A stretch of DNA of 64,000 bases, taken from NCBI GenBank assembly GCA_965231095.1, contig OZ246416.1, positions 436,380-500,379 on the forward strand, written 5' to 3'. Position 1 is the stretch's first letter, and each line of letters begins with the position of its first letter. Shown here piece after piece: positions 4,751 to 48,100 of this stretch. This DNA is from an uncultured Gammaproteobacteria bacterium (lineage in GTDB: Bacteria; Patescibacteriota; Patescibacteriia; XYB2-FULL-38-15). The position numbers and the translations under genes were made by a program. The notes beneath the pieces are model-generated. The model saw nothing but the letters and a program-made list of their open reading frames with translations, was not told the origin of the DNA and made no database searches.

Positions 4751-4782
4751 AAAAAAACCGGCCAGTATTTAAAACCAGCCGG
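4751..4782 (-). terminator. Rho-independent terminator downstream of the GC-rich ORF 4796-5377
   Basis: Minus strand reads CCGGCUGG-uuuuaaaua-CUGGCCGG (8-bp stem with 2 G-U pairs) followed by UUUUUUU. Confidence 0.45.
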
Positions 4783-4795
4783 GACGGGACCTTCC

Positions 4796-5377
4796 TCACT
4801 TACTGCCACCGTTCTTACGCTCTTCTCCGCGAAGCCTCCGCAAAAGCCGCCAGGCGATCCAGTGGTAGGTTTTAATAAGGGCAAGACGTGTCTTGCCGAT
4901 TGTGTCAACGCCCTCGCTTGTTACGGGGCGAAGCGGCTTATCCTTACTACAAGATACCTTGAAGGAAATCTGGACATGATGGCTCCGGTCGAACTCTGAC
5001 TCGAAGGCGCAGTAACCGACTACGCGTACCTCTTCAAGATATTGCTCGATCTCTGGCCAGCGCCGCCGAACCGCCTCGTGCAGAGCGCATCTGACAACGT
5101 CGACAGAACCAAGCTCGCCATCGTAGGCATGCCCATTCTTCTCTCGATCCTTAATTACCCTCTCGTCGACGATTTCGACAAGTTGATCGTCAAGAGACAA
5201 AACGAGATGGACCTTCACCCAGCTACTACACTCATCTATCCAGTGGTTATCTACCTTGAACGTGACCACATGAAACTGCGGCGCCCTACCCGCGGCGATT
5301 GCCCCCGCCAACTCCTTCTCAATCGTGTTGTTTGTCTCGGACTCCTCCCCCTCGGGCCCTTCCTCGCACTCTGTCAC
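4796..5377 (-). CDS. Hypothetical protein, GC-rich islet 1 (193 aa, GTG start, acidic N-terminus)
   Basis: A ~53% GC block in a ~40% GC background, with no A/T homopolymer runs, unlike its flanks. GTG start is preceded by GAAAGAAGG about 6 nt upstream, and the ORF has its own terminator. No family recognised by eye. Confidence 0.4.
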   Translation of the reverse strand: MTECEEGPEGEESETNNTIEKELAGAIAAGRAPQFHVVTFKVDNHWIDECSSWVKVHLVLSLDDQLVEIVDERVIKDREKNGHAYDGELGSVDVVRCALHEAVRRRWPEIEQYLEEVRVVGYCAFESEFDRSHHVQISFKVSCSKDKPLRPVTSEGVDTIGKTRLALIKTYHWIAWRLLRRLRGEERKNGGSK

Positions 5378-5499
5378 GCCCGACCTTCTTTCTACCCCTC
5401 CCCATTTAGAAAAACGGATCCGTCAATCCGCTCAAAAACAAATTTATCACAAATAAAAAAACAAGTCCAGTTTTTGCCCGGACTTATTTTTTCTAAAAA

Positions 5500-5811
5500 T
5501 TATTTTATGTGTTTTTTGACATCACTCCATTTTGTTTTCAAATCTTCCACAACCGCCTCAACCTGCGTTTTGGCCATATTTTTTCTTTTACCATACTCCT
5601 TCACCACTTTTTCCACGACCTCATCGTATTTTTCTTTGCTTATCACTTTCATCTTCCCAACCGCTTCCAAAATTTTGGCAGTGAGCTCCGGATACTTCAT
5701 TTTAAATTCTTCTTGCCGCGTCTTGCCGGTCTTTTTTGTGGTGAAAAGCGCGACGGCCGTACCAATCAAGGCTCCAAGAAGAGCGCCCTTCATAAATGTG
5801 TTTTTACCCAT
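5500..5811 (-). CDS. YtxH-like (DUF948) small membrane protein
   Basis: 103 aa. N-terminal glycine-zipper TM helix KGALLGALIGTAVALFTTKKTGK followed by a charged coiled-coil tail. A terminator hairpin AAGTCC...GGACTT plus T-run lies downstream at ~5447-5480. Confidence 0.45.
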   Translation of the reverse strand: MGKNTFMKGALLGALIGTAVALFTTKKTGKTRQEEFKMKYPELTAKILEAVGKMKVISKEKYDEVVEKVVKEYGKRKNMAKTQVEAVVEDLKTKWSDVKKHIK

Positions 5812-5821
5812 AAATTTTAAA

Positions 5822-6292
5822 TTATTTATAAATTACTATTATGCGCCTAACAATTAAATCCTTTTTTCTTCTTAAGTATCCTCCTCGAAAATCAAACCAA
5901 ACTCTTTTAAACATTTTCTTTTCCATTTTTTTAATTTTTCCAAACTCGGGATCGGCTAAATAAATATTTTTTTGAGCCAGGCCAACCGCGACCGAATAAT
6001 GGCCGCCATCCACCGAAAACCAATCTATAATAACCGGTATGTTTTTTTTCAAATAAAAATTTATATCGGAAAAATCGGAAAAATCTTTTACTAAAATTTT
6101 AAAACCAAAATATTTCGCGGCTCGCTTAAATCCTTCCAGGCCCGTCCCCTTGCTTTTTGTGGTCCGGCAAATTTTTACCAATTTTTTTTCACTCTCTTTT
6201 ACGCCATAAAGATCTAAAATCATTTTTAGGGAAGCTGGCCCGCAGGAACTCCACCCCGCTGTTTGTTCATAAGGTTTTACTTTAAGCATCAT
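5822..6292 (-). CDS. Papain-like cysteine peptidase, C39-like (Peptidase_C39_2/BtrH-like) domain protein
   Basis: 156 aa. Q...GWSSCGPASLKMIL active-site Cys context and downstream GGHYSVAVG His, typical of the C39-like family. No adjacent ABC transporter. Confidence 0.5.
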   Translation of the reverse strand: MMLKVKPYEQTAGWSSCGPASLKMILDLYGVKESEKKLVKICRTTKSKGTGLEGFKRAAKYFGFKILVKDFSDFSDINFYLKKNIPVIIDWFSVDGGHYSVAVGLAQKNIYLADPEFGKIKKMEKKMFKRVWFDFRGGYLRRKKDLIVRRIIVIYK

Positions 6293-6440
6293 ATTATTTA
6301 ATTAGTTTACCATAAAAATATAAAATAAAAAAGAACCACTAGATTTTCCGAGCTTTCCACCATTTTTTCTATCACAAATAAAAAAGCAACAAATAAAAAT
6401 ACCCGCCAAAAAGACGGATATTTTAGTCGCGACTAAAAAT

Positions 6441-6815
6441 TTACGCTTGCGGCCCCATTGGCGGCGGAGTCATTGCCGTCGCTTTCTTAACTCTAAGAAG
6501 CGGCGCTAAAAGAACCAAGCCGTAGCCCAGCCACAATTCCCAAGCCATAAAAATTTCCGAATTAAACCGCATTGTCACAATCCCATCCAAGATCACGCCA
6601 ACCACAACCCATGAAGCGCCGTAGCCCAACGCCATGCCTAAATTTTTTGGTTTAGCATAACCCGCCAAAACAAAAGAAATCACACCGGAAATAACAGCAA
6701 AACTAATATTCAACCAAAGTGATTCGGGAATCTTAAAACCGATAGCAATGGAAACAATCACAAACATCAGCACCCAAAGCAGAGCGCCAAAACCCAACAT
6801 TTTTTTCCAATTCAT
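6441..6815 (-). CDS. Hypothetical membrane protein (3-4 TM)
   Basis: 124 aa, hydrophobic throughout. A perfect 16-bp palindrome TTTAGTCGCGACTAAA lies just downstream (6422-6437). Confidence 0.4.
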   Translation of the reverse strand: MNWKKMLGFGALLWVLMFVIVSIAIGFKIPESLWLNISFAVISGVISFVLAGYAKPKNLGMALGYGASWVVVGVILDGIVTMRFNSEIFMAWELWLGYGLVLLAPLLRVKKATAMTPPPMGPQA

Positions 6816-6834
6816 AAATTCACCTCCCTTCCGT

Positions 6835-8073
6835 TTAAGGATGATAAATTATTCTATAAATCACGCCGGCTTTATCGTCGGAAACATAAGCCGCGCCATC
6901 AAAAAATAAAATTCCCGCCGGACGGCCAAGAACTTCTCCCTCTGCCGTGAGCCAACCGGAAATAAAATCTTCCTCGCCCAAATAATTTCCATCGGCATCC
7001 AATCTATAACGCGCAATTTTATATCCGGTCGGCGCGCTTCTATTCCAGGAACCATGATATGCCACCAATAAATTATTTTGAAAATCCGCCGGCCAACCAC
7101 TCTCTGCCGGAATAAAATCTAAACCCAGCGGCGCCGAGTGCGCCGGAATATCAATGTACGACGCCGTTTCAAATGGCTCCGTGCACGGATTTCTAATATA
7201 AACATTTTTATCAAAATTTGTGTCATGAACATTTTTACCATAACAGGTCGGCCAACCATAATTTTTCCCCTCGTGAATTATATTAATTTCATCGGGCGGT
7301 AAATTATCACCCAAAAAATCTCGTCCCATTTCTGTCGCCCAAATTTCCCCGGTCACCGGATGCCGAGCCATAAAAACAGAATTGCGCAACCCGGAGGAAA
7401 AAGTTCCCAGAGCTCCGGTTTTTACATCAGCCATCAAAATTTTTGCCCGCCGCGCGTCGCTCTCATTACAAACATCGCAAGACGAACCGACCGCAATTAA
7501 AATTTTCTGCGGATCGCTCGGCAAAAACTGCAACGTCCGAGTAAAATGCCGGCCGCCGCCGGGCAAATCTAAAATTTTTCTGCCATTGGTCGCGGCAGCA
7601 GTTTTTTTATCATAATCATAAACCAATAATTTATCTGATTCCGCAACATACAAATTACAACTTTCCCCATCACATTTCACCGCCAAGCCATGCGGACTAT
7701 TGAGGCCGCTAAGTACGGTGGCATTTTCGTCAGCCACGCCGTCTCTATTTTTATCAGGTAACGTCAAAACTTTCCCGGCGCCCGTCACGCTAACAAGCAA
7801 CCGTCCGGCCCCGTCGGAAAGAATAACCCGCGGTGTTCCTAAATTTTTGGCAAAAATTGAGATGGAAAAACCGTCTGGCAAGGCCAGTGGAAATTCCGGC
7901 GGAATTATTTTTTGGGGAACACTATTTTGATTTTCTAAAGAATTTACGATATTAACCGATGGCTCGCTAACATTTCTCCAAAATCCACCAAAATTTTTCC
8001 AAAAATAAAATATTCCCCACCCGACGGTGGCCAAAAAAATCACGGCAACCGCGCCCAAAATTATTTTTTTCAT
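6835..8073 (-). CDS. PQQ-dependent soluble sugar (glucose/sorbosone) dehydrogenase-like beta-propeller protein
   Basis: 412 aa with N-terminal signal/TM. GKNYGWPTCYG (the NYGWP hallmark) and a C-terminal ...VSDDKAGVIYRIIY typical of YliI/SGDH family. Confidence 0.65.
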   Translation of the reverse strand: MKKIILGAVAVIFLATVGWGIFYFWKNFGGFWRNVSEPSVNIVNSLENQNSVPQKIIPPEFPLALPDGFSISIFAKNLGTPRVILSDGAGRLLVSVTGAGKVLTLPDKNRDGVADENATVLSGLNSPHGLAVKCDGESCNLYVAESDKLLVYDYDKKTAAATNGRKILDLPGGGRHFTRTLQFLPSDPQKILIAVGSSCDVCNESDARRAKILMADVKTGALGTFSSGLRNSVFMARHPVTGEIWATEMGRDFLGDNLPPDEINIIHEGKNYGWPTCYGKNVHDTNFDKNVYIRNPCTEPFETASYIDIPAHSAPLGLDFIPAESGWPADFQNNLLVAYHGSWNRSAPTGYKIARYRLDADGNYLGEEDFISGWLTAEGEVLGRPAGILFFDGAAYVSDDKAGVIYRIIYHP

Positions 8074-8115
8074 ATTTTAAACTAAAACCCCGGAAATAAA
8101 TCCGGGGTATAATTT

Positions 8116-8847
8116 TTATTCTGCTAAAGGAAGCGCCGTCAGATTCGTGTTGCTAATTCCCAAACCCAGCTCTCTCATAATCCTGAAGGCGTCATCCGGC
8201 CGGCCAAGATAATATTTTTTTCTGTCTTTTGGATAAATGTAATACGCTTCGCCGTGCGCCTCCACATCAAGTAAAATTCTTCCGACAACATGCGAAGGAA
8301 AATAAGTTGTGTTTGTTATAAAATCATGAGTCGCGCCGAGCCCGAGCGTCCGCATCACGCTAAACGCGTCTGCCGGCCTCCCCAAATAATAACCTTTTTG
8401 ATTCACCGGATAATAGTAATACGCCTCACCATGTTTTTCTACCGCCAAAAAAATGTAACCAATGTATTTTGCCAAACTTGCCGTAGAGGCTGAGCTGCCC
8501 GAACTTCCACTTGTTGTCCCGGAAGTATTTGTCAAAGCCTTGTCAGTGAGCTGCATTAAAACTTGCCCAACCCAACCAACCGTCCCATCAGCCAACTCCA
8601 CTTTATACCAACCGTCGGTTTCACCGATAACTTTAATAACCGATCCCTTGACCACGGTTTTTAAAATCGTGGAATTTACCGTGCATGGCTCGTTTCGAAC
8701 GTAAGCACTAATTACGACTTCGCCGCGCAAATCGCGCTCATAAATCGGATCACAGCCGCAACATTCCCCGGCCCCTACCTCGCCGCTTGGCCAAAAAATG
8801 AAAACCAAGACAGCCAAAACTACAATGGAAAATGCCTGTTTTTTCAT
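8116..8847 (-). CDS. Secreted protein with SH3b domain and two ~50-aa internal repeats
   Basis: 243 aa; signal peptide. SH3_3-like segment ...VKGSVIKVIGETDGWYKVELADGTVGWV. Duplicated motif HGEAYYYYP...YYLGRPADAF..MR.LGLG appears twice. Confidence 0.45.
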   Translation of the reverse strand: MKKQAFSIVVLAVLVFIFWPSGEVGAGECCGCDPIYERDLRGEVVISAYVRNEPCTVNSTILKTVVKGSVIKVIGETDGWYKVELADGTVGWVGQVLMQLTDKALTNTSGTTSGSSGSSASTASLAKYIGYIFLAVEKHGEAYYYYPVNQKGYYLGRPADAFSVMRTLGLGATHDFITNTTYFPSHVVGRILLDVEAHGEAYYIYPKDRKKYYLGRPDDAFRIMRELGLGISNTNLTALPLAE

Positions 8848-8926
8848 AATTTTAAGATTATGATTTAGCCGGACGCTGATTAAATTTTACCATATTTTAA
8901 AATCAACGTCCATTTCCATTATAACG

Positions 8927-9310
8927 TTAATACACCCTCTTAAATTTCACGACAAAAACCGGTTCGTATTTATTTTCATATTCGTCCGTCACTTGAACCG
9001 TCTCGCCTTTTACGAAAGTATTTAAAGCCAAATCGGAAAGCATTTCCGCATCGGTTTCCGTGTCCGCCTTTAAAGTTTCAAGTTCAGAAAACTCGGAAGA
9101 AAAATCTCCTCGCACGTCCATTTCAATTTTTTTCTTTTTCTCGCGCAAAGTTTTTAGATCCTCCACAATTTTTCCGTAGTCAGCGCTCCCGGCTAACGCC
9201 TCTTTATACGCCGATCTGATTTCCTTTTGTTTCTTTTTTGTTTTTTGCATGCGAAGCCAAACTTCTTGAAGATTTGCCATACGAAATTTTAATATTAATT
9301 TTTTAATCAA
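8927..9310 (-). CDS. Hypothetical coiled-coil protein
   Basis: 127 aa; likely start at MANLQEVW. Lys/Glu-rich. Confidence 0.3.
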   Translation of the reverse strand: MIKKLILKFRMANLQEVWLRMQKTKKKQKEIRSAYKEALAGSADYGKIVEDLKTLREKKKKIEMDVRGDFSSEFSELETLKADTETDAEMLSDLALNTFVKGETVQVTDEYENKYEPVFVVKFKRVY

Positions 9311-9370
9311 AAAACCGGTTATCCACCTCCGTTTAACCGGATTAATTTATTTTACTACAAATCTTAAACT

Positions 9371-10063: not shown

Positions 10064-10899
10064 GGCAAAAGCCGGCCACCTGCCTCGAGAATCGTCAATT
10101 CCCCGGCTTCAAGCGTTCCGCCATATTTTTCTACCAGTGGCAATAAATTATTTTTGTAAGCCATAGCGGAATATCCCGAAGCGTAACCGTTGATTAAAAA
10201 AAATAACGGCTTGTCGGAAAGTAATTTAAAACATAAATCAATCAATTCTAAAAAATTATCTTCAATTTTCCAAAGTTCGCCGCCCGGACCATGGCCAAAG
10301 GCCGGCGGATCCAAAACAATTCCGTCGTAGCGATGGCCGCGTTTTATTTCTCGTTTTACGAATTTCACCGCGTCTTCCAAAATCCAGCGGATTGGTTTTT
10401 TATCAAGCTTTGATAATGTCGCATTATCCCGCGCCCAAGTAATCGCGACTTTTGATCCGTCCAGGTGGCAAACTTCCGCCCCGGCCGACGCCGCCGCGAG
10501 CGTTGCCCCACCCGTGTAGCCAAAAAGATTAATCACGGAAACTTTTCTTTTTTCCTTGCCGACTAAATTTTTAATCCACTCCCAATTTCCAACTTGCTCC
10601 GGAAAAATTCCCAAATGTTTAAAGGTTGTGGGCTTTATCCAAAAATCCAAACCTGCCAAATTTATCTTCCAGCGGCCGGGCACTTCACGCCCAATTTTCC
10701 ATTCTGCTGACTCCGCGCTTCGCTTAAATTCTCCATCAATTTTTTTCCACGCCGCCACATTTAATTTCGGCCAAAGCGCCTGCGGATCCGGGCGCGAAAA
10801 AACAAACCGCCCGTAGCGTTCCAATTTCTCTCCCTCCCCGGAATCAATAAGTTCGTAATCAGTTGAGGGTTTGGTTTTTAGGATTATATAGTCGGACAT
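10033..10899 (-). CDS. Class I SAM-dependent rRNA methyltransferase, RlmI/YwbD-like
   Basis: 288 aa. SAM-binding LFGYTGGATLAAASAGA...DGSK and a VLDPPAFG (DPP(A/F)) catalytic motif. Confidence 0.6.
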   Translation of the reverse strand: MSDYIILKTKPSTDYELIDSGEGEKLERYGRFVFSRPDPQALWPKLNVAAWKKIDGEFKRSAESAEWKIGREVPGRWKINLAGLDFWIKPTTFKHLGIFPEQVGNWEWIKNLVGKEKRKVSVINLFGYTGGATLAAASAGAEVCHLDGSKVAITWARDNATLSKLDKKPIRWILEDAVKFVKREIKRGHRYDGIVLDPPAFGHGPGGELWKIEDNFLELIDLCFKLLSDKPLFFLINGYASGYSAMAYKNNLLPLVEKYGGTLEAGELTILEAGGRLLPCGIFARWNI

Positions 10900-12074: not shown

Positions 12075-12077
12075 AAT

Positions 12078-22068: not shown

Positions 22069-22334
22069 TTTTTTATTTTTCTATAGTTTTATTAAAACCT
22101 TCAAACGGAGGTTTTTTTGTTTGTCTTGCCCCGTAGTAGAATTTTGGAATTTAAATACTCTTTCGCCGGTAATCGATTGCATTTATCTTTATCGCAAAAT
22201 ATTAAAACCAAGTTCTTTGTCCGCCCCTGGCGGATATCCAAAATTTCACTACGGGGTTGACAAAATCGGCGTATTATTCTAAAATCCAAGGTCGCGATAG
22301 ACAACAACTCTCCGAATCGGAGAAGGAGGCACCC

Positions 22335-22988
22335 ATGGTGGAGGAACGTGATTTCGAGAGACTGCGGGAGCTTACCCCACGGCAATTGTGGATGGAGCTC
22401 GCGGCGGCCTACGAGGCGCTCGCGGCGCAAGAAGTGGAGATCAGGGGTCTCCGCAGCTCGCTGGCGGAACTTTGGAACGAGGGGGAACAATACATGGCCG
22501 AGGGGCGGATCGATCACCTGACGGGCGCGCTGAACCGCAGGGGCGTCGAGATCGCTCTTACTGACGAAATGTCCTTCGCCCGACGCTTCGAGTCCCCTCT
22601 CAGCGTGATCGCGATCGACGTCGACCACTTCAAGGAAACGAACGACACGTACGGACACCCTGCCGGGGACACCGTCCTGCAGGAAATCGTCAGGCGTGCT
22701 CGCAAGGTTCTCCGCCCCTATGACTCAATCGGACGAATAGGAGGAGACGAACTCACCATCATTCTCCGAGGGGCAACTTTGAAAAACGCAACTTTGGTCG
22801 CCGAACGTATCTGCGCGGCCATAGCGCTAAATGTCTTTTCCTACGGCGAAGCAACCTTCCGTGTAACAATCAGCGTCGGTGTGGCCGTGGCCGAGAGAGA
22901 GGCAAAACAAACCCTCGAAGCGGCAGACGAGGCTCTCTATGAGGCCAAACGTAGCGGTCGCAACCGCGTAGTTGCGATCAATCGATAG
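22335..22988 (+). CDS. GGDEF-domain diguanylate-cyclase-like protein (GGDEL variant) with short N-terminal coiled coil; GC-rich islet 2
   Basis: ~60% GC. AAGGAGG lies 7 nt upstream of ATG MVEERDF (this ATG was chosen over the longer track ORF starting at 22257). GGDEF-domain hallmarks: LTGALNRRG, IDVDHFKETNDTYGHPAGD, RIGGDELTIIL. No sensor or TM domain. Confidence 0.75.
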   Translation: MVEERDFERLRELTPRQLWMELAAAYEALAAQEVEIRGLRSSLAELWNEGEQYMAEGRIDHLTGALNRRGVEIALTDEMSFARRFESPLSVIAIDVDHFKETNDTYGHPAGDTVLQEIVRRARKVLRPYDSIGRIGGDELTIILRGATLKNATLVAERICAAIALNVFSYGEATFRVTISVGVAVAEREAKQTLEAADEALYEAKRSGRNRVVAINR

Positions 22989-22996: not shown

Positions 22997-23054
22997 CAAG
23001 GACAGAAAATCCCGCAACCAGGAGGCGCGGGAAAAACTCTGTCCTTGTTTTTTT
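22997..23054 (+). terminator. Rho-independent terminator after the GGDEF gene
   Basis: CAAGGACAG...CTGTCCTTG outer stem with inner TCCCGC/GCGGGA stem, followed by TTTTTTT. Confidence 0.55.
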
Positions 23055-23056
23055 AT

Positions 23057-24136
23057 CTATCTCAAAATCTCGTCAACGATTTTTTGCGCCGCGTTGGCAG
23101 ACATTATTTCTTTAATATTTCTGCCCAAATTTTCCAATTCCACTTTGTTATTTAGCAATTCCCGAACAGCCGCGGAAAAATTTTCCGGCGTTATATTTTT
23201 TTCATCCCAAAACATAACCGCATTTTGTTTTTTAAAATAATAAGCATTGTCTTCTTGATGACTTTCGGGAATTGGGATTAAAACCGTTGGCTTGCCAAGC
23301 ACGGCGAGTTCGGTTAGCGTCGCCATGCCGGCGCGGGAAATTACAAGATCAGAGGCGGCAAAAATATCCGGCAAATCTTTTCCCAAAAATTCCGCGGAAT
23401 GATACCGCGCTGTTTCCCTTTTTATATTTTCAATTTCATTTTTCATCGCCTCATCAATTCTTCCACCAGTCATATGAATTACCTGGCAAAATTTTACAAG
23501 CTCGCGCGAGGCCGCGACAATAATTTTATTTAAACTCATTGCCCCCGTCCCCCCGCCTAAAATAAAAATTGTTGGCAAATCTTTTTCTAAATTAAAATTC
23601 TGCGCGGCGCGCATTTTATCCCCGGAAAAAATTTCTTGCCGCACCGGATTTCCAACAACTACTCCTCGCGGAAAATATTTTAAAGATTCTAAAAATGTGA
23701 CAGTTATAATTTTTGCAAACTTCGCCGTAAGTTTATTTGCTAAACCCGGCCGCAAATCTTCTTGATGAACCAAACTTGGCACGCGCAAAATCCAACCCGC
23801 CCAAATTACCGGCACAGCCACAAACCCTCCGGCCGACAAAATCATTTGTGGTTTAAATTTAAAAATCAACCAAAACGATTTTAAAAATCCCGCCGCAATA
23901 TAAAATGGCGCCAAAAAATTCCAGCCGGAAAAATACCGACGCAATTTCCCCGCCGACACACTCGTAAATTTAATCCCAAACGACTCCACAAACTTTTTTT
24001 CAGGTCCATTCTTTGTTCCAATCCACAAAAAATCCGCGCCAGACTCGCGCTTTTTTATTTCTTCGGCCACGGCCAGTAGCGGCGTCACCGATCCCATTGT
24101 CCCCCCACCTGTCAAAATTATTTTCATATCAGCCAC
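23057..24136 (-). CDS. murG: Undecaprenyl-PP-MurNAc-pentapeptide-UDPGlcNAc GlcNAc transferase MurG
   Basis: 359 aa. N-terminal ILTGGGTMGSVTPLLAV GT28 motif, C-terminal ...GGGTGAMSLN..., and ending ISRAGMATLTEL. Confidence 0.85.
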   Translation of the reverse strand: MADMKIILTGGGTMGSVTPLLAVAEEIKKRESGADFLWIGTKNGPEKKFVESFGIKFTSVSAGKLRRYFSGWNFLAPFYIAAGFLKSFWLIFKFKPQMILSAGGFVAVPVIWAGWILRVPSLVHQEDLRPGLANKLTAKFAKIITVTFLESLKYFPRGVVVGNPVRQEIFSGDKMRAAQNFNLEKDLPTIFILGGGTGAMSLNKIIVAASRELVKFCQVIHMTGGRIDEAMKNEIENIKRETARYHSAEFLGKDLPDIFAASDLVISRAGMATLTELAVLGKPTVLIPIPESHQEDNAYYFKKQNAVMFWDEKNITPENFSAAVRELLNNKVELENLGRNIKEIMSANAAQKIVDEILR

Positions 24137-24677
24137 AACGATTCAAATAATTATTTACTTTTAAAATCAAAACACAACTCGGCCCGTGAGTGATTTTGCT
24201 CTCCATTACCATCTTCACTGCTTTATCAAATTTAATTTTTATCATTTTAATTATTTCCGTACCTTCAGGATTTTTCCGGGTGAACGCCAAATCTCTGGCA
24301 AGAAAAAGCTGGGCTCGGGATTTTACAACCGTCGTAAATGGATCAACGGTTCCAAAATTAGTCCACTTATTCGCTCTAATACCCAATTCTTCAAGAAGTT
24401 CTCTTTTAGCTGTCTCGAGCGGTTTTTCCCCGCGCTCCAGCGCTCCGCTTACCGTTTCAACTGTCTTTCGTTCAACGGCATAATGATATTCGTAAGTTAG
24501 ATAAACATAACCTTTGCCGTCCATCGGAAGAACCGAAACTCCCGACTTCATATTCACGGTGCCAAAAATTCCCGGCTTGCCATCGGGTCTTATCACTTGG
24601 TCTTCATTAACTTCGATCCAAGGATTTTTATATTTTAAAATTGTTTTTTTAATTTTCCACGGACCTCTTTTTTTCAT
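24129..24677 (-). CDS. NUDIX hydrolase (ADP-ribose pyrophosphatase-like)
   Basis: 182 aa. Nudix box GALERGEKPLETAKRELLEELGI. Inserted between ftsW and murG; its stop overlaps the murG start by 8 nt. Confidence 0.7.
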   Translation of the reverse strand: MKKRGPWKIKKTILKYKNPWIEVNEDQVIRPDGKPGIFGTVNMKSGVSVLPMDGKGYVYLTYEYHYAVERKTVETVSGALERGEKPLETAKRELLEELGIRANKWTNFGTVDPFTTVVKSRAQLFLARDLAFTRKNPEGTEIIKMIKIKFDKAVKMVMESKITHGPSCVLILKVNNYLNRCG

Positions 24678-33296: not shown

Positions 33297-33492
33297 ATAT
33301 ATCAGTATATTATACCAAAAAAAATTTAAAAATCAAAAACTAACTATACATTTAACATATACCACTGACCCTTAATAAGATGATGACTAACGCCCGTTAA
33401 ATATATATTAAATTAACTATACCCCCCTCTCTTCATCTTTCCATCATAAAAAAAGAATATACTATAAAGTGGGAAATTTAAAGATTAAATTT

Positions 33493-33768
33493 ATGGATCA
33501 GGACTTGTGCTATTGCGGAGAACGAGCCACTCGCGGTGAGGGGTTGCTTCGAAACACCATGTCCTGCCAGTCTTGCGGCAGCGAATGGGAAATCACCCAT
33601 TGCTGGAATTGCGGCGAACAAATTGACGGAAGATTTTCTTCAACCTGCCGCGCCTGCGACTGGTATCTCTGCGCCAAATGCGGGGCGCACGAACCGGACT
33701 GCACTAACACTCTAAACGCAAAAGCGCGCGTCGGGAATGCGGCTACTTTCGGCAGTACGGCAGTTTAA
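33493..33768 (+). CDS. Small Cys-rich (zinc-ribbon-like) protein; moderately GC-rich islet 5
   Basis: ~92 aa with five CxxC/CxC pairs (CYC, CQSC, CWNC, CRAC, CAKC...C). ~52% GC against AT-rich flanks. Start at ATG 33493 chosen (the track ORF begins at GTG 33469). Terminator follows. Confidence 0.4.
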   Translation: MDQDLCYCGERATRGEGLLRNTMSCQSCGSEWEITHCWNCGEQIDGRFSSTCRACDWYLCAKCGAHEPDCTNTLNAKARVGNAATFGSTAV

Positions 33769-33785
33769 TTTTTTCAAAAATGAAA

Positions 33786-33812
33786 AAGAGGCACTGAAGC
33801 CTCTTTTTGTAT
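33786..33812. terminator. Bidirectional terminator between the Cys-rich ORF and ctpA
   Basis: AAGAGGC-actga-GCCTCTT followed by TTTGTATTTT; A-run on the other side. Confidence 0.5.
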
Positions 33813-39603: not shown

Positions 39604-39683
39604 AAATAGACTAAATTTAAATATTTCTCACTCTATTTACTTTACTAAAATACCCGTTTTTCGTCAATCCTTAGCCCGCAGAT

Positions 39684-39725
39684 AAAAAAACGCCGTCTGG
39701 GTAGCTGCGTGCTGCCAGACGGCGT
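39684..39725 (-). terminator. Rho-independent terminator of GC-rich islet 3 ORF
   Basis: Perfect 11-bp stem ACGCCGTCTGG/CCAGACGGCGT with a 14-nt loop, followed on the minus strand by TTTTTTT. Confidence 0.55.
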
Positions 39726-39763
39726 AAAGTCAATCCTCCTTACTCGGATCAGGCCGCGGCCGA

Positions 39764-40345
39764 TTACCACCACAAAACCTTGGCCAGGGCGGCAAGCGAC
39801 CGACCGTCGGTGGACTGCTTCCGGAACTCGGCCGGGGTCATGAGCTCGGCTTCCGGGATGGCGTTGACCTCCACGGAATAGACCGCGATCATGCCCACGA
39901 TGCGCTGGGGATTGGATTCGATGTAGCCCACAGGCTCGAGTCCCTTCTCGGCCAGTTCGCCTTTGGAGATGCTCGAGGGTTTCAGCTCCAGCATCTCGCC
40001 GTTCAGGCCCTTGGCCTTGCGGACGCGCACCTTGATCTGCCCGTGCTGGTGGTTCCACTCCACGATGACGTGACCCACGACGCGCGAGCTGCCGTCCTCG
40101 GGCTGCGAGAGGTTGGGCTCTTCGTAGAGCACGAGCTGGCCCCAGCCGCCGCGATCCACGTAGCGCCCGTCGAAGAACTTGCCATCGCCCCGACCACTCC
40201 GACCCGTCGCCGGATCGAAGCACCAGAGCTCGGCCTCCTTGCCATCCTCAACCTTCTTCGTGAGGATCGGATCGAGCTCGAGGCAAACGACGACATCTTC
40301 GCCCAAACGCCTTCGCGCCTCTTCCAAAACGATGATCTGTACCAT
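39764..40345 (-). CDS. Hypothetical protein, GC-rich islet 3 (194 aa)
   Basis: ~60% GC. Start trimmed to ATG (MVQIIVLEEARRRLGEDVVV) preceded by AAGGAAGGAAAG. Strong terminator downstream. Sits inside the rml cluster. No family recognised. Confidence 0.45.
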   Translation of the reverse strand: MVQIIVLEEARRRLGEDVVVCLELDPILTKKVEDGKEAELWCFDPATGRSGRGDGKFFDGRYVDRGGWGQLVLYEEPNLSQPEDGSSRVVGHVIVEWNHQHGQIKVRVRKAKGLNGEMLELKPSSISKGELAEKGLEPVGYIESNPQRIVGMIAVYSVEVNAIPEAELMTPAEFRKQSTDGRSLAALAKVLWW

Positions 40346-40470
40346 CTCTTTCTTTCCTTCCTTGAAGCCCCCTTGGCTTCTTGTTGATATTGATAACTTA
40401 AAACAAAAAACGAATAATGTCAAGAACAGCAAAGCGGCCTTTCGGCCGCTTAATTTTTATTTAATAACCC

Positions 40471-41089: not shown

Positions 41090-41090
41090 A

Positions 41091-42104: not shown

Positions 42105-42114
42105 ATTTTTACTC

Positions 42115-43052: not shown

Positions 43053-43056
43053 ATTT

Positions 43057-43257
43057 TTATTCTTTAATTTTTTGTTTCTCCAATAGTATTGTCAGGATAC
43101 CAGAAACTAAAGGAATCATCAAGAGCAAATTAAAACTAATATAAAAACTTACAAAGCCGGGCTGGAACCATTCCAAAAGTCCAAAAATAATAAAAGAAAC
43201 AAAAGAAATCGCAAATGCGTCCCGGAAAATTTTATAGAAAAATTCTTTTATTGTCAT
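43057..43257 (-). CDS. Small membrane protein (2 TM)
   Basis: 66 aa, hydrophobic. Overlaps upstream gene by 4 nt. Confidence 0.25.
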   Translation of the reverse strand: MTIKEFFYKIFRDAFAISFVSFIIFGLLEWFQPGFVSFYISFNLLLMIPLVSGILTILLEKQKIKE

Positions 43258-43847
43258 AAAATTTTGTTTAACCGATCAATTATCTCTTCCAAAACTTTGT
43301 TGGCCACTTCTTTTTCCGTCATCGGCTTCCGAAGGAAAAGCGCCCTAATTTTATAAATCACAATGTCCCCAACTTGCAGCTCCGGCGCGGAAAATCCAAA
43401 TCTGAATTTTTTCCCTTCGGGCGCGAGCTTTCCCAATTCAAAAATTTCCGTTTTTGTCTGAAGGGCTCCTTCGGTCGGCGGCAGTTCACGGAAATCAAAC
43501 GCCCAATCGTCTTTATTTGCGAGGCCGCCGAACTTTATCGGCACGCCGGATAAATTTTTATATTTTATCGTCACAGCTACTTGGGAAAAATTACTATTTG
43601 GACTCAAGTCAAAATAAACCGGCTCGTCTTTAAAAACACGATAAGCTTCCTGGTCGGCGTCTCGTTTAATTTCCGAGACTCTATCCTTGGGATAAAGCTT
43701 GGAAATAAACGGCGTCTCGCGAGCCATGTCGTAAGTTGCCTCCATTCTTCCGCCCGGCGTAATCGCTTTCGCGGTAAGCCAGCCCAAAATAATAATGGGA
43801 ATAAAAATTAAAATTACGCGGATAAATTTATGCCAAAAAGAAAGCAT
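43254..43847 (-). CDS. Hypothetical protein with N-terminal signal anchor
   Basis: 197 aa. Single N-terminal TM, then a soluble domain. Confidence 0.35.
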   Translation of the reverse strand: MLSFWHKFIRVILIFIPIIILGWLTAKAITPGGRMEATYDMARETPFISKLYPKDRVSEIKRDADQEAYRVFKDEPVYFDLSPNSNFSQVAVTIKYKNLSGVPIKFGGLANKDDWAFDFRELPPTEGALQTKTEIFELGKLAPEGKKFRFGFSAPELQVGDIVIYKIRALFLRKPMTEKEVANKVLEEIIDRLNKIL

Positions 43848-43864
43848 ACTTAAAAACTCATTTC

Positions 43865-45496
43865 TTAATTCTCATTTTTCAATTCTAACTTATAAAGCGT
43901 CTCTGCTCCAAAATTCTTTACTTCGGTTATCTCAATCTCTTCGCGATTGATTCTGCCATCATAAAGATAATTCATTTCTCGCTCAACGAGCGGTAATCCA
44001 TAATAATAAAGCGGAAAAGTTTTCGCGAGTTCGGGAATCGCGGTATAAGTGCTCTCTTCGCGAAGCGGCACAATCACCCGATGATCCGGAAAAAATATTT
44101 TGTCGGCGCGGTCAACAATAATTATCGCTTCGGCAGGAATCATCTCGTTCACCGTTTTGGCAATCGCGGCGTAATCCCAAACATTTTTATAAATATAAGC
44201 TAACCCGTCATTTTTATCAAAAAATACAAGATTCACTCCAAAAAGAATAAATATCAAACAAAGTACGCCGGCAAAAAGTTTTTCTTTCCAAGGGCGAATA
44301 AAATCAATTAATTTCGCGAGAGTAAACGCGACAAGCGGCAGCGACAAAATATAAATCGGCAACCAATAGCGCGTGTAAGAAGTTCCGATTGACGCAACCT
44401 TCGCCGGATTGTCATAAAAAACCCAGCTGCCGTAATACAAAAATAAAAATAAAGAAATAAATCCGCCAAGAGACAGATAAGATATAATTTTTTTATCTAA
44501 CTTTCCGGCGATTAATCTTCTGATAAAAACTACCGCGCCAAAAGCTGCGGGAAGGGCAAACCACCAAAACATTCCCGCAAAATACGTGGAGAAATTTTTC
44601 AAAATATTTTTAATCTGGAGACCAAAAGGAAAAATAAATTTTACGGCCGGCGTAAACCACCCCACTCCGGAAACCGCCGTGCTCCCCTCTCCTAAATTAT
44701 AAGCTGTTGTGAGCGGCTCGCCATAGATTGTCTGATTGTAAAAAATAACTGGAATGAAAGCCAGCCCCGCGGGAAGTAAAAAGACAATCACTTCAAGCCA
44801 TTTTAAATTTTTTCTATAAATTAAAAATAATAAAAAGAGCGCCGCGCCGACCCAAATTATTTCTGACAGCCGAACAGTTAAGGCTAAACCAAAAAATAAA
44901 CCAGCAAAAATATAATCGAGATAATTTAAAACCGGATTCTTTGGTTTTCCGCGCCCAACCAAAAAATAAAATCCCGCGAGTATCAGTGAGATAAATAAAA
45001 TATTCGGGAAAAATCCGCGGCTCGCGTAATACCAAAAAGCCGGATGAACTAAGAGTAAAAAAGCTGACCAAAGAGCGATTCTCCGATCAAAAATATTTTT
45101 TACAATTTTGTAAAGAAAAAAAACAGCGGCAATGGCAAAAAAGGGGGTAAGCCACCAAACTATTCCCAGGGTAAAAATTTTTGCCAACCACCCATAAATT
45201 AAAATCAATCCCAAAAAACTTCCCGGGATAAGATTTCCGCCCGAGGTCGTGATGCTCCGCGGATGAACTATTCCGCCAGTCGTAAGATTCAACGGTTCAA
45301 AAACTTTAAGCGTTCCCTCCACAACGTAATTTTTTATAAAAAAATAATTGGCCGCCTCATCTGGCGAATTAAATTTCGCTGTCGCGGCCGCTGTTCCCAA
45401 ATAAAACCATGAATAAATAAAGAAAAAAACGAGCGCTAAAAAAATCAACGCGGTTTCCGCCCTATTTCCCTTTATCCATTTTATGATAGAATACAT
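43865..45496 (-). CDS. Polytopic GT-C-fold membrane glycosyltransferase (ArnT/PMT/GT39-83-like)
   Basis: 543 aa, ~12 TM, with Arg/Asp-containing loops near the N-terminus. Architecture typical of polyprenyl-phosphate-sugar-dependent GT-C enzymes. Inference from topology only. Confidence 0.4.
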   Translation of the reverse strand: MYSIIKWIKGNRAETALIFLALVFFFIYSWFYLGTAAATAKFNSPDEAANYFFIKNYVVEGTLKVFEPLNLTTGGIVHPRSITTSGGNLIPGSFLGLILIYGWLAKIFTLGIVWWLTPFFAIAAVFFLYKIVKNIFDRRIALWSAFLLLVHPAFWYYASRGFFPNILFISLILAGFYFLVGRGKPKNPVLNYLDYIFAGLFFGLALTVRLSEIIWVGAALFLLFLIYRKNLKWLEVIVFLLPAGLAFIPVIFYNQTIYGEPLTTAYNLGEGSTAVSGVGWFTPAVKFIFPFGLQIKNILKNFSTYFAGMFWWFALPAAFGAVVFIRRLIAGKLDKKIISYLSLGGFISLFLFLYYGSWVFYDNPAKVASIGTSYTRYWLPIYILSLPLVAFTLAKLIDFIRPWKEKLFAGVLCLIFILFGVNLVFFDKNDGLAYIYKNVWDYAAIAKTVNEMIPAEAIIIVDRADKIFFPDHRVIVPLREESTYTAIPELAKTFPLYYYGLPLVEREMNYLYDGRINREEIEITEVKNFGAETLYKLELKNEN

Positions 45497-45505
45497 AAAT
45501 CAATT

Positions 45506-47638
45506 ATGACCCTCAGATTACCTTATTGTATCATCATTTCTTTGATTTTAATAGTCGGCTTGCTCGGCAATTTTTTCCTTTGGGAAAGCCCGCTGGTCGG
45601 CCTAACTTTCGGTCCGGCCTACCTTATTTTCTTCGGTTTTCTTTTGGGTTTTATTCTCTTCCGCGGCCGCCCCGATCTTTTCAAATTTCTCTACGGCCTT
45701 CTCTTTCTTTTAGCCGGCCTCTCTCTTTTCGGCGCCCTGATTTATTTTTTTTATAAATTGAATACTCTGGCACTAGGGACACTTGTTCTTCTGCCGCCTT
45801 TTGTTTTGCTTCCATTCCTGCGTTTCGGCAATCATCCTGAATCAGAAAAACATTTTAATCCTGTCCAAATCAACCCCCATATTTTGCGAACAACGTTTCT
45901 TCTGGCGGCGTTTATCTTTTTAACAGTTTTAAACGTACGCCATCTTTTGGCTCTGGGCACTGTTGAAGCTATCCGCAGCCCTTGGAAAATTTTGCCCTTT
46001 GATTTTTTTCTGACTTATGGCGCGGCAACCATTGTCCTTTTATATTTTGTTTTAAAAAGCCAAAAAGAAGGGCTGAATTTAATTTTAATTTCCGCGCATA
46101 CTTTTTTAACCGTGGCGCTTGCCCTTTTTGTTTATCGTATCGGCTACGGTTTTGATCCGTTCATTCACCAAGCCACGGAGAAAATTATTCTGGCGCAAGG
46201 TTTTATTTTGCCAAAACCATTTTATTACCTCGGCCAATATTCTCTTGTCGTTTTCTTGGCAAAAATTTTCCACACTTCGGTTGTTTGGGTTGACCGGCTC
46301 CTTCTTCCAATTTTAATTTCCACTTTTTTGCCGGCCACGGCCTATTTTTCCATCCGGCCATACACCGATCGAACCAAAACTCCCGGCGCAAGCTTAGCGG
46401 CCCTTCTTCTTTTTCTCCTACCTTTCACCTCTTTTCTCGCCACCACTCCGCAAGGCCTGGCCAATTTTTTTCTTTTGATAATAATTTTCTTTGCTGTCCT
46501 CGCCCTACGACGAGAATTTTCTATTTCCGCCCTTTGGTTTTTGGGTTTTACCGCGCTCCTCATCCATCCTCTGGCCGGCCTGCCCGCGCTTATATTTTTA
46601 TTTCTCCTCACGGTTTTTACTTTTTTTAAAAAACAACAAGGCATTTTTGAATTTGTCCGCCACGTTGTTTTTATAATGAGCACTCTTCTTGCCGCCGTTG
46701 CCATCCCCTTGGTATTTCTCGCGGCGATTTTATTTTTCAAGGGACCCTCCGCGATAATTTCTATCAAAACAATTGAGGGCGCGGATAATTTTCTCTCGGC
46801 TCTCGGCTGGTCTGTACCGTTTTTAGTTGATCACTTCCGGCCGCTCTTTGACTTGGCTTACACTTACGGACAAAATATTCCTTTTCTTCTCTTGCTCGTC
46901 GGCTTTGGCGGATATTTTATTCTCCGAAAAAATTTACCGTCTATTTTAGTTTACATCACCGCTTTTTTTGCCTTAATCACCAATTACGTTTTAATAAAAC
47001 TCTTTGCCGATTTTCCCTCGCTCATAAAATACGAGCAAGGAATTTTTCCCGGCCGCATTTTAGAAATCAGTTTTTATTTTTTAATTCCTCTTTTTCTCTT
47101 CGCTCTCTACAAATTTTTTGAAAAATTAATGGAAGGCAAAAGCCGCGGGCTGAAATTATTTTTCATTTTAATTTTTTCCATATTTTTAACTTTTTCATTT
47201 TACTATTCTTATCCCAAAGACGACGGCGAAGATTATCCGATTGACCGCGGCTATTCTGTTTCCCTTTTTGATTTAAACGCGGTCAAGAAAATTGACTCTG
47301 ACGCCGCCGGCGCGGACTATATTGTTTTAGCCAATCAAAGTGTTTCCGCCGCGGCAGTCAAAGAATTTGGATTTAATAAATATTTTGGCCCATACTTTTA
47401 TTATCCAATTCCCACCGGTGATCCGCTTTACCAATATTATCTGAAGATGGTTTACGCGCCGCCAACTCGCGCCACTGTCGCTGAAGCAACAAAATTGACC
47501 GGCGTTCGCCTTGTCTACTTTGTCTTAAATAAATATTGGACCGATTCGGAAAAAATTTTAGAAGCCGCCCGCCCCACCGCCGACGAAATTTTGGAAATTG
47601 GGAATGGAAGGATTTGGATTTTCAAATATCAGTTTTAA
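45506..47638 (+). CDS. Large polytopic membrane protein with C-terminal extracytoplasmic domain (possible GT-C/DUF2079-like)
   Basis: 710 aa, more than 14 TM, C-terminal ~150-aa soluble domain. Divergent from the previous gene, with 9 bp between start codons. Confidence 0.4.
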   Translation: MTLRLPYCIIISLILIVGLLGNFFLWESPLVGLTFGPAYLIFFGFLLGFILFRGRPDLFKFLYGLLFLLAGLSLFGALIYFFYKLNTLALGTLVLLPPFVLLPFLRFGNHPESEKHFNPVQINPHILRTTFLLAAFIFLTVLNVRHLLALGTVEAIRSPWKILPFDFFLTYGAATIVLLYFVLKSQKEGLNLILISAHTFLTVALALFVYRIGYGFDPFIHQATEKIILAQGFILPKPFYYLGQYSLVVFLAKIFHTSVVWVDRLLLPILISTFLPATAYFSIRPYTDRTKTPGASLAALLLFLLPFTSFLATTPQGLANFFLLIIIFFAVLALRREFSISALWFLGFTALLIHPLAGLPALIFLFLLTVFTFFKKQQGIFEFVRHVVFIMSTLLAAVAIPLVFLAAILFFKGPSAIISIKTIEGADNFLSALGWSVPFLVDHFRPLFDLAYTYGQNIPFLLLLVGFGGYFILRKNLPSILVYITAFFALITNYVLIKLFADFPSLIKYEQGIFPGRILEISFYFLIPLFLFALYKFFEKLMEGKSRGLKLFFILIFSIFLTFSFYYSYPKDDGEDYPIDRGYSVSLFDLNAVKKIDSDAAGADYIVLANQSVSAAAVKEFGFNKYFGPYFYYPIPTGDPLYQYYLKMVYAPPTRATVAEATKLTGVRLVYFVLNKYWTDSEKILEAARPTADEILEIGNGRIWIFKYQF

Positions 47639-47738
47639 AAAAAATAATAAAACGCCAGAAAATAATCACCGGCGTTTTTTTATTGACAAAAAATAAAATA
47701 AATGATTAAATAATGAGTCACCAACAAAGGAGGGCTTG

Positions 47739-48038
47739 ATGACCAACAAAGAGAAGGCCAAGATGGAAGACATTCTGATGCGGCACTTGGAGGAAGACGA
47801 CCGTCTTTGCCCGATCGCCGAAGCAATGCCCGGCGACTACGTCACCGTAGTGCTTCCCTACAAGCTTTTGTGGGCTTTCCGCGTGAACATCGCTCGCCAC
47901 GCGATCGTGCGCAAGCGCGACTTGTCTCGGCCCGACGACGGAGTGGAGATCGAACTTCTGAACGACCGGGCCGAAACCGATCAGCTTCCCCTGGACTATC
48001 CGTGTTTCGTGACGCCGCCTGCGACCGACGAGGAATAA
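47739..48038 (+). CDS. Small hypothetical protein, GC-rich islet 4 (~99 aa)
   Basis: ~58% GC. AAGGAGG lies 5 nt upstream of ATG (MTNKEKAKMEDIL...). Followed by a terminator. No family recognised. Confidence 0.45.
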   Translation: MTNKEKAKMEDILMRHLEEDDRLCPIAEAMPGDYVTVVLPYKLLWAFRVNIARHAIVRKRDLSRPDDGVEIELLNDRAETDQLPLDYPCFVTPPATDEE

Positions 48039-48073
48039 CAACAAAAAACCGCCGGAAAATCCGACGGCCGCCC

Positions 48074-48100
48074 GCCACCAGCTCAATGGTGGCTTTTTTT
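48074..48100 (+). terminator. Rho-independent terminator after islet 4 ORF
   Basis: GCCACCA-gctcaa-TGGTGGC followed by TTTTTTT. Confidence 0.55.

Follow-up and report, generated by a model that had tools for sequence, protein, structure and literature searches.

Can genes that look foreign by their composition be long-standing residents of the genome that carries them? The question is raised by a 64,000-nucleotide stretch of a genome assigned to the Patescibacteria (contig OZ246416.1, positions 436,380–500,379; hereafter the window), in which an initial annotation had flagged five single-gene blocks, here called I1–I5, as GC-rich islets in an AT-rich host and read them as repeatedly acquired foreign cassettes or as members of a single family of small mobile or selfish cassettes. 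The compositional anomaly is real in four of the blocks and marginal in I3. The reading we prefer, with moderate confidence, is that I1, I2, I4 and I5 are resident genes whose GC-richness is maintained, and that the maintaining force acts on their codons or transcripts rather than being GC-biased gene conversion.

Composition and expression signals of the five blocks

Compared with host windows of equal length, the blocks of I1, I2, I4 and I5, as first delimited, are GC-rich (53.5%, 52.9%, 58.4% and 57.8%; z = 2.9–4.4), reaching values found in at most 0.4% of host windows; for these four the originally claimed range of about 52–60% stands. It fails for the I3 block, which has 41.5% GC (z = −0.3) and is raised only within the coding sequence (CDS; 52.7%), and the background, put at about 40%, computes to 43.3% for the whole window. 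At third codon positions, the 57 open reading frames (ORFs) measured in the window, our host reference for codon statistics, have a mean GC content (GC3) of 0.426 (s.d. 0.046, maximum 0.52), against 0.63 for I1, 0.68 for I2, 0.57 for I3, 0.84 for I4 and 0.76 for I5 (z = 3.1–8.9). Atypical composition and codon usage, by which genomic islets are recognized, are thus present, in GC3 for every gene and in block GC for four of the five.

Codon choice in the islets is inverted relative to the host (TTC 0.80 against 0.13, AAG 0.74 against 0.18, ATC 0.74 against 0.16): C ends 24% of two-fold NNY sites in host genes and 58–87% in islets, while G ends 26% and 31–82% of two-fold NNR sites, respectively. 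The resulting usage resembles that of a generic bacterium of 55–65% GC. Amino-acid composition is shifted as well (z of about −2 to −2.6 for the FYMINK residues Phe, Tyr, Met, Ile, Asn and Lys), and A/T runs of five or more, which occur 14.7 times per kb in host sequence, number only 0–1.5 per kb in the islet CDSs, in agreement with the lack of homopolymer runs first reported.

Each block does hold a single ORF in the window, I4 keeping on its 3′ side the Shine–Dalgarno (SD) remnant of a lost second small ORF. Host genes are mostly SD-poor, as had been described, with a mean anti-SD duplex ΔG of −1.5 kcal/mol and only 9% of genes at −6 or below, and the TATAAT boxes near the ATG of ftsE and rplI were confirmed. 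The SDs ascribed to the islets are borne out in part: those of I2 and I5 are of the AAGGAGG type (−11.0 and −11.4 kcal/mol), the purine-rich AAGGAAGGA of I4 is moderate (−7.1) and the AGAAGG of I1 weak (−5.3), whereas I3 has none (−0.2). A stem with a T-run terminates every block, found by scan for I1, I3 and I5 and by eye for I2 and I4, whose loops exceed the scanner's limit of 8 nt; these terminators, like the promoter-like sites discussed below, are predictions.

Inheritance at fixed junctions

I1, I2, I3 and I4 occupy an identical junction in every sister locus examined (sister loci are numbered L0xx and homologous proteins P0xxx), and homologues of I3, I4 and I5 lie at matching distances across L002–L004 and L013. 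I1 stands between ytxH and a GT2 glycosyltransferase gene in L006, L007, L011 and L024, in the last of these with only 40% identity; I2 has a GT4 gene on one side and murG on the other in L008–L010, L028 and L029, with tRNA-Lys adjoining in all sisters; and the order PMT2–HIT–NUDIX–epimerase–I4–NTP_transferase–PEGA–S41 is kept in L005, L018 and L021, where the proteins of the flanks share about 50% identity with those of the window. Absence or variability at the junction in relatives, a further mark of a genomic islet, is seen for I5 alone.

The families are taxonomically restricted, homologue searches with I1, I4 and I5 returning only Patescibacteria or metagenome contigs. Every taxon-named homologue among the 19 of I1 and the 46 of I4 is patescibacterial (Falkowbacteria and Uhrbacteria for I4), and I5 has two real relatives in an exhaustive scan of 1.84 billion representative proteins. 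For these three no closest homologue in a donor lineage outside the clade was seen. I2 has five close orthologues in the candidate phyla radiation (CPR; 57–71% identity), followed at about 50% by GGDEF domains of multi-domain proteins of Myxococcota and Planctomycetota, similarities that make an old outside origin of I2 plausible.

Between the window and its sisters, flanking genes have diverged by 0.7–1.3 at synonymous sites (dS) and 0.04–0.13 at nonsynonymous sites (dN), with dN/dS of 0.03–0.15 and protein identities of 80–93%. The proteins of I1, I2, I4 and I5 are 34–62% identical to their sisters (dN 0.28–0.6, dN/dS 0.25–0.5) and evolve 3–6 times faster than their neighbours: identity, dN and dN/dS are 51–57%, 0.33–0.41 and 0.25 for I1; 56%, 0.35 and 0.40 for I2; 59–62%, 0.28–0.33 and 0.35–0.41 for I4; and 34–38%, 0.5–0.6 and 0.3–0.5 for I5 (orthologues in L003 and L004). 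In all of these dS is similar to that of the flanks, which argues for inheritance together with them, and the high dN argues for relaxed or diversifying selection on the proteins. Within-species pairs of loci differ at about one site per kb, and the islets are no more variable than the rest, disposing of hypermutation of the kind driven by diversity-generating retroelements. Nor did overlapping or dual coding find support, long alternative-frame ORFs being less conserved than the main frame and expected from GC-richness alone.

Persistence of high GC3

In every sister, the islet orthologue again forms a sharp GC island: 55–57% GC against 42–45% in its surroundings for I1, 57–58% against 40–42% for I2, 62–66% against about 41% for I4, and 57–59% against 40–41% for I5. 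Each family keeps its own GC3 set-point, about 0.64 (I1), 0.65 (I2), 0.84 (I4) and 0.7 (I5), when reading frames in the sister loci are anchored by tblastn. Across lineages I1 has 0.63, 0.65, 0.63 and 0.64, a series that includes L024, whose I1 flanks stand at dS 1.6–2.0 from the window; I2 has 0.68, 0.64 and 0.63; and I4 has 0.81–0.89 in the window and seven related loci, where the host has 0.38–0.44. Even over genomes of 38–59% GC, I4 exceeds host GC3 in 10 of 11 lineages, with 0.92–0.93 against 0.67–0.70 in genomes of 58% GC and 0.49 against 0.32 in L005. Conservation applies to the total GC3 and does not extend to individual codon preferences: among I1 lineages, Lys, Glu and Gln codons end in G at shares of 0.82, 0.60, 0.54 and 0.38, and the GC content of four-fold sites runs from 0.55 to 0.69, at a constant GC3 of 0.63–0.65.

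Could such values be the residue of a once higher GC3? In a passive-decay model that tends towards the third-position frequencies of the host, an ancestral GC3 as high as 1.0 would by now have fallen to 0.72–0.78 or less at pairwise dS of 0.7–1.0, and to 0.62 or less at dS 1.6. A host-like substitution process thus falls short of what is observed, which argues that the GC-richness is maintained.

What maintains the GC

Four observations point to a force at the level of codons or transcripts. At four-fold sites coding-strand C rises from 0.25 in the host to 0.40, G moving from 0.31 to 0.28, on whichever DNA strand the gene lies; the GC-rich block spans the start codon to the terminator; the SD is kept in islet orthologues; and GC follows the gene family. 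The last is best seen at the I5 junction, a genuinely variable hot spot of gene content. In the window (47639–48098) I5 lies there between a GT4 gene and the gene of a 710-residue membrane protein; L004 (1340–2600) carries two tandem I5-like ORFs and an AT-rich P-loop kinase-like ORF, L013 (2140–3250) an AT-rich Fic gene (HPFTDGNGR) and a 66-residue ORF, and L002 (1760–2200) an AT-rich MscL gene. Because Fic and MscL at this junction are AT-rich, GC-richness follows the family and not the site, and a position-specific GC pressure is ruled out.

On our preferred reading, then, I1, I2, I4 and I5 would be lineage-restricted accessory genes resident in a Falkowbacteria-like clade of Patescibacteria, each an SD-led unit with its own terminator inherited at a fixed chromosomal junction, and their GC-rich coding would be a stable, family-specific property held against an AT-biased background instead of the fading scar of an import. 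Selection on codons or on the transcript would be the maintaining force, possibly favouring a class of GC-rich, structured, SD-dependent mRNAs in an SD-poor genome whose −10 boxes often stand beside the ATG. A 5′ coding region that is GC-rich and structured might require an SD to accompany it, other genes starting A/U-rich or leaderless. Islet mRNAs are predicted to fold much more strongly per nucleotide than host mRNAs.

Several results weigh against this reading. Relative to composition-matched shuffles the folding is only modest (minimum-free-energy z of −1.2 to −3.2 for islet transcripts, folded with their terminators, and −0.4 ± 0.9 for host), leading us to set aside selection for extra RNA structure as such. 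The high dN/dS runs counter to the pattern of highly expressed, codon-optimized genes, and the genes of ribosomal proteins L9 and L27 use host-like A-ending Lys and Glu codons. The FYMINK shift is more easily accounted for by a general pressure towards GC, or by a foreign origin, than by selection on codons alone, and selection strong enough to hold a GC3 of 0.84 is not what one would expect in a CPR organism that presumably grows slowly. In L022, the sole exception among the I4 lineages, the homologue has a GC3 of 0.29 against 0.44 in its host. Finally, polarized synonymous changes in I4 on short branches comprise 40 from G or C to A or T and 17 in the reverse direction; parsimony polarization inflates the former count, and the per-site rates imply an equilibrium GC3 near 0.69, not 0.43, but some slow net loss of GC may be under way.

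Ordinary translational selection was tested with the only two ribosomal-protein genes available and rejected: L27 and L9 show host-like usage (AAA 0.86, TTT 0.83), L27 pairs a high C/(C+T) with a low G/(G+A), which I1, I2, I4 and I5 do not, and the islets have dN/dS of 0.25–0.5.

The competitor that survives best, although we consider it unlikely, is GC-biased gene conversion, by which the islets would be recombination hot spots that exchange diverged alleles among related lineages and where biased heteroduplex repair yields both the GC-richness and the fast protein evolution. Segment comparisons show that I4 and I1 alleles are mosaic: P0015 is 95% identical to P0013 over residues 1–60 and 92% identical to P0003 over residues 126–193, and P0050 and P0060 agree completely over their first 30 residues, then at 42–61%. 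The I4 tree conflicts with that of its flanks (in I4, L002 and L004 share 75% and L003 and L004 58%, whereas the flanks place L002 as the outgroup), and the pairwise homoplasy index (PHI) test is significant for I4 (p = 0.0005–0.002). The high dN/dS, the GC-shifted amino acids and the conservation of total GC3 over codon identity would all fit. So would the published link between recombination and GC3 in bacteria, the raised GC3 of recombining genes having been ascribed to such conversion (Lassalle et al. 2015, PMC4450053). Like those genes, I4 shows intragenic recombination together with a raised GC3 independent of codon optimality. The difference lies in the neighbourhood, since 8 of 12 flanking host genes are also PHI-significant (p = 0.001–0.03) and keep a GC3 of 0.39–0.46; that recombining neighbours stay AT-rich weakens the explanation. 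Enrichment at four-fold sites is moreover confined to coding-strand C, where conversion predicts strand symmetry, the edges of the blocks coincide with start codon and terminator, and the other cargo at the I5 junction is AT-rich. The GC3 excess of the islets, +0.2 to +0.45, also far exceeds effects reported for bacteria.

Less likely still, and in our judgement improbable, is that each islet was acquired once, long ago, from a GC-rich donor by the ancestor of the clade and is ameliorating slowly with no force maintaining it. I2 gives this its best case, its nearest relatives outside the CPR being GGDEF domains of GC-rich Myxococcota and Planctomycetota and the decay model permitting, for I2 alone, an ancestor at a GC3 of about 0.9–0.95; the high-GC style of codon usage, the shifted amino-acid composition and the excess of GC-losing changes in I4 are likewise in its favour. 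Yet the values of I4 (0.84) and of I1 (0.63–0.64 at dS 1.6–2.0) are unreachable from an ancestral GC3 of 1.0, sisters share equal GC3 instead of scattering, and islet synonymous rates appear equal to those of the flanks. The synteny of I4 reaches very distant lineages, its GC3 stands above that of the host even where the genome is itself GC-rich, and no homologues outside the CPR were found for I1, I4 or I5.

The reading with which the initial annotation began, recent and repeated acquisition of foreign monocistronic cassettes or a single mobile or selfish family, we regard as very improbable. Its foundation is sound, in that the units are compositionally atypical and self-contained, with SD and terminator; I2 also adjoins tRNA-Lys, the I5 junction differs between sisters, and a miniature inverted-repeat transposable element (MITE)-like insertion and an att-like tRNA duplication, both described below, indicate that insertions reach the tRNA-Lys region. 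Acquisition of this kind is contradicted by orthologues of I1–I4 at the same junctions in all sisters with flank-like dS, and the one clearly window-specific gene, NUDIX at 24129–24677, is AT-rich, not GC-rich. A mobile family is contradicted by the products, which are mutually unrelated in sequence, by the lack of integrase or transposase domains among islet neighbours, and by the lack of common ends: comparison of the five blocks gave only low-complexity A/T-tract matches at terminators, and the single 13-nt inverted repeat round I4 is not kept in sisters. Orthologues at the same positions with host-like codon usage had been named as the finding that would tell against that reading; the orthologues are in place, and their codon usage is not host-like. 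What stands of it is thus the oddity of composition and architecture, a plausible old origin of I2 and the variable I5 junction, and what falls is recency and mobility.

A phage or defence origin was also considered and rejected. PHROGs, PADLOC and NCBIfam gave nothing beyond the GGDEF domain of I2, which in the first two shows generic GGDEF/Cas10-palm similarity; scans of IMG/VR brought up nothing related to I1, I4 or I5, and for I2 no more than generic GGDEF domains, whose identity reached 46% at most. Structured RNAs do not account for the blocks, since Rfam matches in the window at the gathering threshold are four tRNAs and the proteins show codon-level conservation. Integron gene cassettes were rejected in turn: the units carry their own promoter-like sites and stem/T-run terminators and are scattered singly, and a repeat search found no common 3′ element among them, no dedicated attC model having been run.

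That the blocks are an assembly chimera or contaminant reads, which the initial annotation had named as a possible refutation and for which nothing speaks except the jump in composition itself, is practically out of the question, because the independent Logan assembly of SRR8863431 matches I4 and I5 with 15 kb of flanking sequence at 100% identity and the same islet architecture recurs in metagenome-assembled genomes (MAGs) and contigs from several unrelated samples and studies.

The individual genes

Coordinates of the five genes and of their associated elements are collected in Table 1.

Table 1. Positions of the islet genes and their signals within the window
Feature	Position	Strand	Remarks
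I1 intrinsic terminator	4758–4782	−	CCGGCTGG..CTGGCCGG + T-run; terminator scan
I1 CDS	4796–5377	−	193 aa; GC 0.55
I1 weak SD	5384–5389	−	AGAAGG; orthologues have GGAGGAGG or AAGGAGG here
Hairpin + U-run between ytxH terminator and I1 SD	5410–5430	−	CGGAUUGACGGAUCCG-UUUUU; kept in L006, L011
MITE-like insertion	22126–22256		About 131 nt; 20-nt terminal inverted repeats CCCCGTAGTAGAATTTTGGA / TCCAAAATTTCACTACGGGG; absent from L008, L028
I2 promoter-like site	22257–22285	+	TTGACA-17-TAAAAT; 11/12 consensus matches; kept in L008, L028
I2 SD	22323–22329	+	AAGGAGG; small hairpin 22308–22324 5′ of SD
I2 CDS	22335–22988	+	217 aa; GC 0.59; GGDEF domain
I2 terminator	22998–23056	+	Long compound stem, AAGGACAG..CTGTCCTT + T-run; by eye
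I3 CDS	33469–33768	+	99 aa (91 aa from ATG 33493); GC 0.53; no SD
Bidirectional terminator	33783–33808		Common to I3 and convergent S41 peptidase gene; terminator scan
I4 terminator	39683–39725	−	ACGCCGTCTGG..CCAGACGGCGT + T7; by eye
GC-rich 3′ untranslated stretch	39726–39763	−	SD remnant AAGGAGG of second small ORF
I4 CDS	39764–40345	−	193 aa; GC 0.63
I4 SD + 5′ untranslated hairpin	40346–40380	−	Purine-rich AAGGAAGGAAAG; conserved GAAGCC-N5-GGCUUC at 40364–40380
I4 promoter-like site	40395–40424	−	TTGACA, 17 nt, TAAGTT; kept in all sister loci of the window's clade
I5 SD	47727–47733	+	AAGGAGG
I5 CDS	47739–48038	+	99 aa; GC 0.58; orphan family
I5 terminator	48074–48103	+	GCCACCAGCTCAATGGTGGC + T7; terminator scan

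I4, the most extreme of the set in GC3, lies within a nucleotide-sugar gene cluster. Its upstream region is as conserved as its CDS or more so (68–86% nucleotide identity against 61–85%), with a constant order of the preceding gene's terminator, TTGACA-17-TAAnyT, the GAAGCC-N5-GGCUUC hairpin and the SD; the hairpin may be an mRNA-stabilizing or regulatory stem. The predicted fold appears Nudix-like. The Nudix box GX5EX7REUXEEXGU is absent, however: its counterpart reads G113..E120-LKPSSIS-K128-GELAEKG, the family does not keep the glutamates of REUXEE, and no Pfam NUDIX match appears at E ≤ 1. Going by the predicted fold, I4 is likely a Nudix-fold protein acting in the surrounding dTDP-sugar/glycosylation cluster. 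In L002 (10615–10830) and L004 (about 10590–10812) I4 is followed by a second GC-rich ORF, which encodes a basic 71-residue protein and is led by an AAGGAGG of its own; only its SD remnant, before the I4 terminator, is left in the window, L013 and L014.

I2 encodes a stand-alone GGDEF protein (PF00990, 137.8 bits against a cut-off of 23.8, E = 3.5e-40; TIGR00254, 152.6 bits against 37.4, E = 8e-45). Its active site is GGDEL, orthologues having GGDEF, GGDEL or GGDEI, and alignment shows a conserved RxxD I-site, RPYD, five residues upstream. Given the full domain, the GGDE[L/F/I] motif and the conserved I-site, I2 is probably an active, product-inhibited diguanylate cyclase making c-di-GMP; its N-terminal segment of about 55 residues would form a coiled coil. 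Full-length domain, motif and I-site spacing are shared with stand-alone GGDEF cyclases of the PleD/WspR type, from which I2 differs in having neither receiver nor sensor domain and in the change of the motif Phe to Leu in this genome. GGDEF cyclases are uncommon in CPR genomes.

Promoter and leader of I2 are kept in L008, and in the window the MITE-like element sits exactly inside the −35 box, where a TTG duplication regenerates TTGACA. Two further observations concern this region. In L008 (9640–9900), though not in the window, there are two copies of the 3′ end of tRNA-Lys (GAGCCCCAGCCGGGTCATTTTTTATT) at a spacing of about 220 nt, an att-like duplication round a small insert. The NUDIX gene mentioned above (24129–24677, minus strand, 182 residues, Pfam E = 5e-10, GC3 0.36) lies between murG and ftsW, which are adjacent in L008 and L028, so that the gene is specific to the window.

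The fold predicted for I1 is that of the regulatory domain of LeuA/citramalate synthase, a two-fold beta-beta-beta-alpha arrangement, to which is added an invariant basic C-terminal helix (WRLLRRLRGE); the protein stands alone, lacking an attached synthase catalytic domain. Neither LeuA_dimer nor any other Pfam family matched I1, and a PDB profile search gave nothing significant. From the predicted fold, I1 is likely a regulator-like protein that binds a small ligand. Its leader hairpin shows compensatory changes in L024 (GCGGA..UCCGC) and, with its U-run, may be an attenuator. The G-run ATGGGGAGGGG 5′ of I1 (5378–5403, minus strand) is apparently one G longer than in the closest homologue, P0048, where its length was deduced from the protein N-terminus (MGGVERRSGV...) and not from DNA. 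The extra G would put the upstream ATG used in P0048 out of frame, and I1 in the window would therefore start at GTG 5377 with a weaker SD; the difference is possibly one of homopolymer length.

I3 belongs with the ordinary, conserved genes of the host and, like rpmA, mildly favours codons ending in C: its Cys-rich, zinc-ribbon-like product has four CxxC pairs and is 77–86% identical to its sisters (dN/dS 0.08–0.12, host-like dN, dS similar to flanks), and its codon pattern of high C/(C+T) and low G/(G+A) is that of L27.

Relation to known systems

Phage morons, atypical ORFans and recombination-linked GC enrichment each fail on a tested feature. A phage moron is defined as one ORF that has a promoter and a terminator to itself and differs in composition from the genes beside it (PMC4378225). 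The islets are likewise single ORFs between two housekeeping genes, differing sharply in composition from the adjacent genes, with their own SD and factor-independent terminator (five of five) and promoter-like sites that are clear in I2 and I4 but not in I1. They reside, however, in a bacterial chromosome, among mur, fts, glycosyltransferase and ribosomal-protein genes and not in a phage or prophage, occur in every sister genome where a moron would be missing from close relatives, and hold their composition stably instead of betraying a recent arrival.

Atypical genes, on which Daubin, Lawrence and Ochman have reportedly worked, and ORFans are usually AT-richer than their genome and patchily distributed. 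The islets share with acquired islets and fast-evolving ORFans their taxonomic restriction, rapid protein evolution and atypical codon usage, but are GC-richer and syntenic and have held their composition over dS of 1–2.

A further parallel is offered by modification-tunable transcripts, codon-biased regulons that are translated under particular tRNA or toxin states; MazF-mt9 of Mycobacterium tuberculosis, for instance, is said to cleave tRNA-Lys(UUU) and so to favour AAG-rich transcripts. The islets too are a small set of genes with opposite synonymous codons (AAG 74% against 18%), although here every codon family is GC-shifted, and it is GC content that is conserved as codon preferences drift.

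Wider implications

Compositional oddity is usually read as recent horizontal gene transfer (HGT). That rule fails here, where the oddity is inherited and long held in genomes that are otherwise streamlined and drifting towards AT, and the case is a caution for composition-based HGT screens of CPR MAGs. It also offers a natural test bed for what raises GC against universal AT-biased mutation, be it selection or biased gene conversion: the contrast is extreme (GC3 of 0.84 beside 0.43) with sharp edges at gene boundaries, and many population metagenomes exist. The four uncharacterized, CPR-restricted proteins—a stand-alone GGDEF cyclase, a LeuA-regulatory-domain-like protein, a Nudix-like protein of a glycan cluster and an orphan—are conserved and fast-evolving and merit functional study.

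A bolder thought, to which we give little credence as yet, is that CPR genomes hold a second, composition-defined class of genes with SD-led, GC-rich and strongly structured mRNAs, standing among AT-rich genes that are poor in SDs and prone to leaderless starts, in which GC itself is selected. Each family would then hold its set-point at a scaled strength of about 1–2 per site, and the class might constitute an expression code, its transcripts surviving or being translated only in states such as attachment, starvation or toxin activation. Many more such genes would be implied; at least two further GC-rich units lie just past the window in sister loci. As for the islets themselves, searching the CPR literature turned up no account of conserved, GC-rich single-gene units like these.

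Further observations

The two additional GC-rich units occur in L006 (18751–19650) and L011 (19001–19400), about 3.5 kb beyond what is the left end of the window. One carries an ORF for an acidic 84-residue protein with AAGGAGGAG. The other, on the minus strand, is about 380 nt long with 62% GC, TTGACA-17-TAAAGT and a terminator; no convincing ORF, Rfam match, tRNA or tmRNA was found in it, and it may be an undescribed RNA.

Within the window, GC-richer stretches recur at 54–63 kb, in a region (53666–63922) that encodes an FG-GAP-repeat subtilase and three large surface proteins of the Big_1/Invasin_D3/Big_5 kind, up to 1608 residues long. There the elevation resides in codon position 2 of the Big-domain surface proteins (GC 0.50–0.53) and GC3 is host-like, so that the cause differs from that in the islets. 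A host-composition gene of 124 residues at 6441–6815 (minus strand), lacking a Pfam match, is unlike its neighbours in having a strong SD, GGGAGGTG (ΔG −11.9). Host genes in general have 57% GC at four-fold sites, with a strong NCG preference (CCG 0.55, GCG 0.43), and about 25% at two-fold sites. Many of them carry TANNNT 9–16 nt 5′ of the ATG, which suggests leaderless mRNAs or mRNAs with very short leaders.

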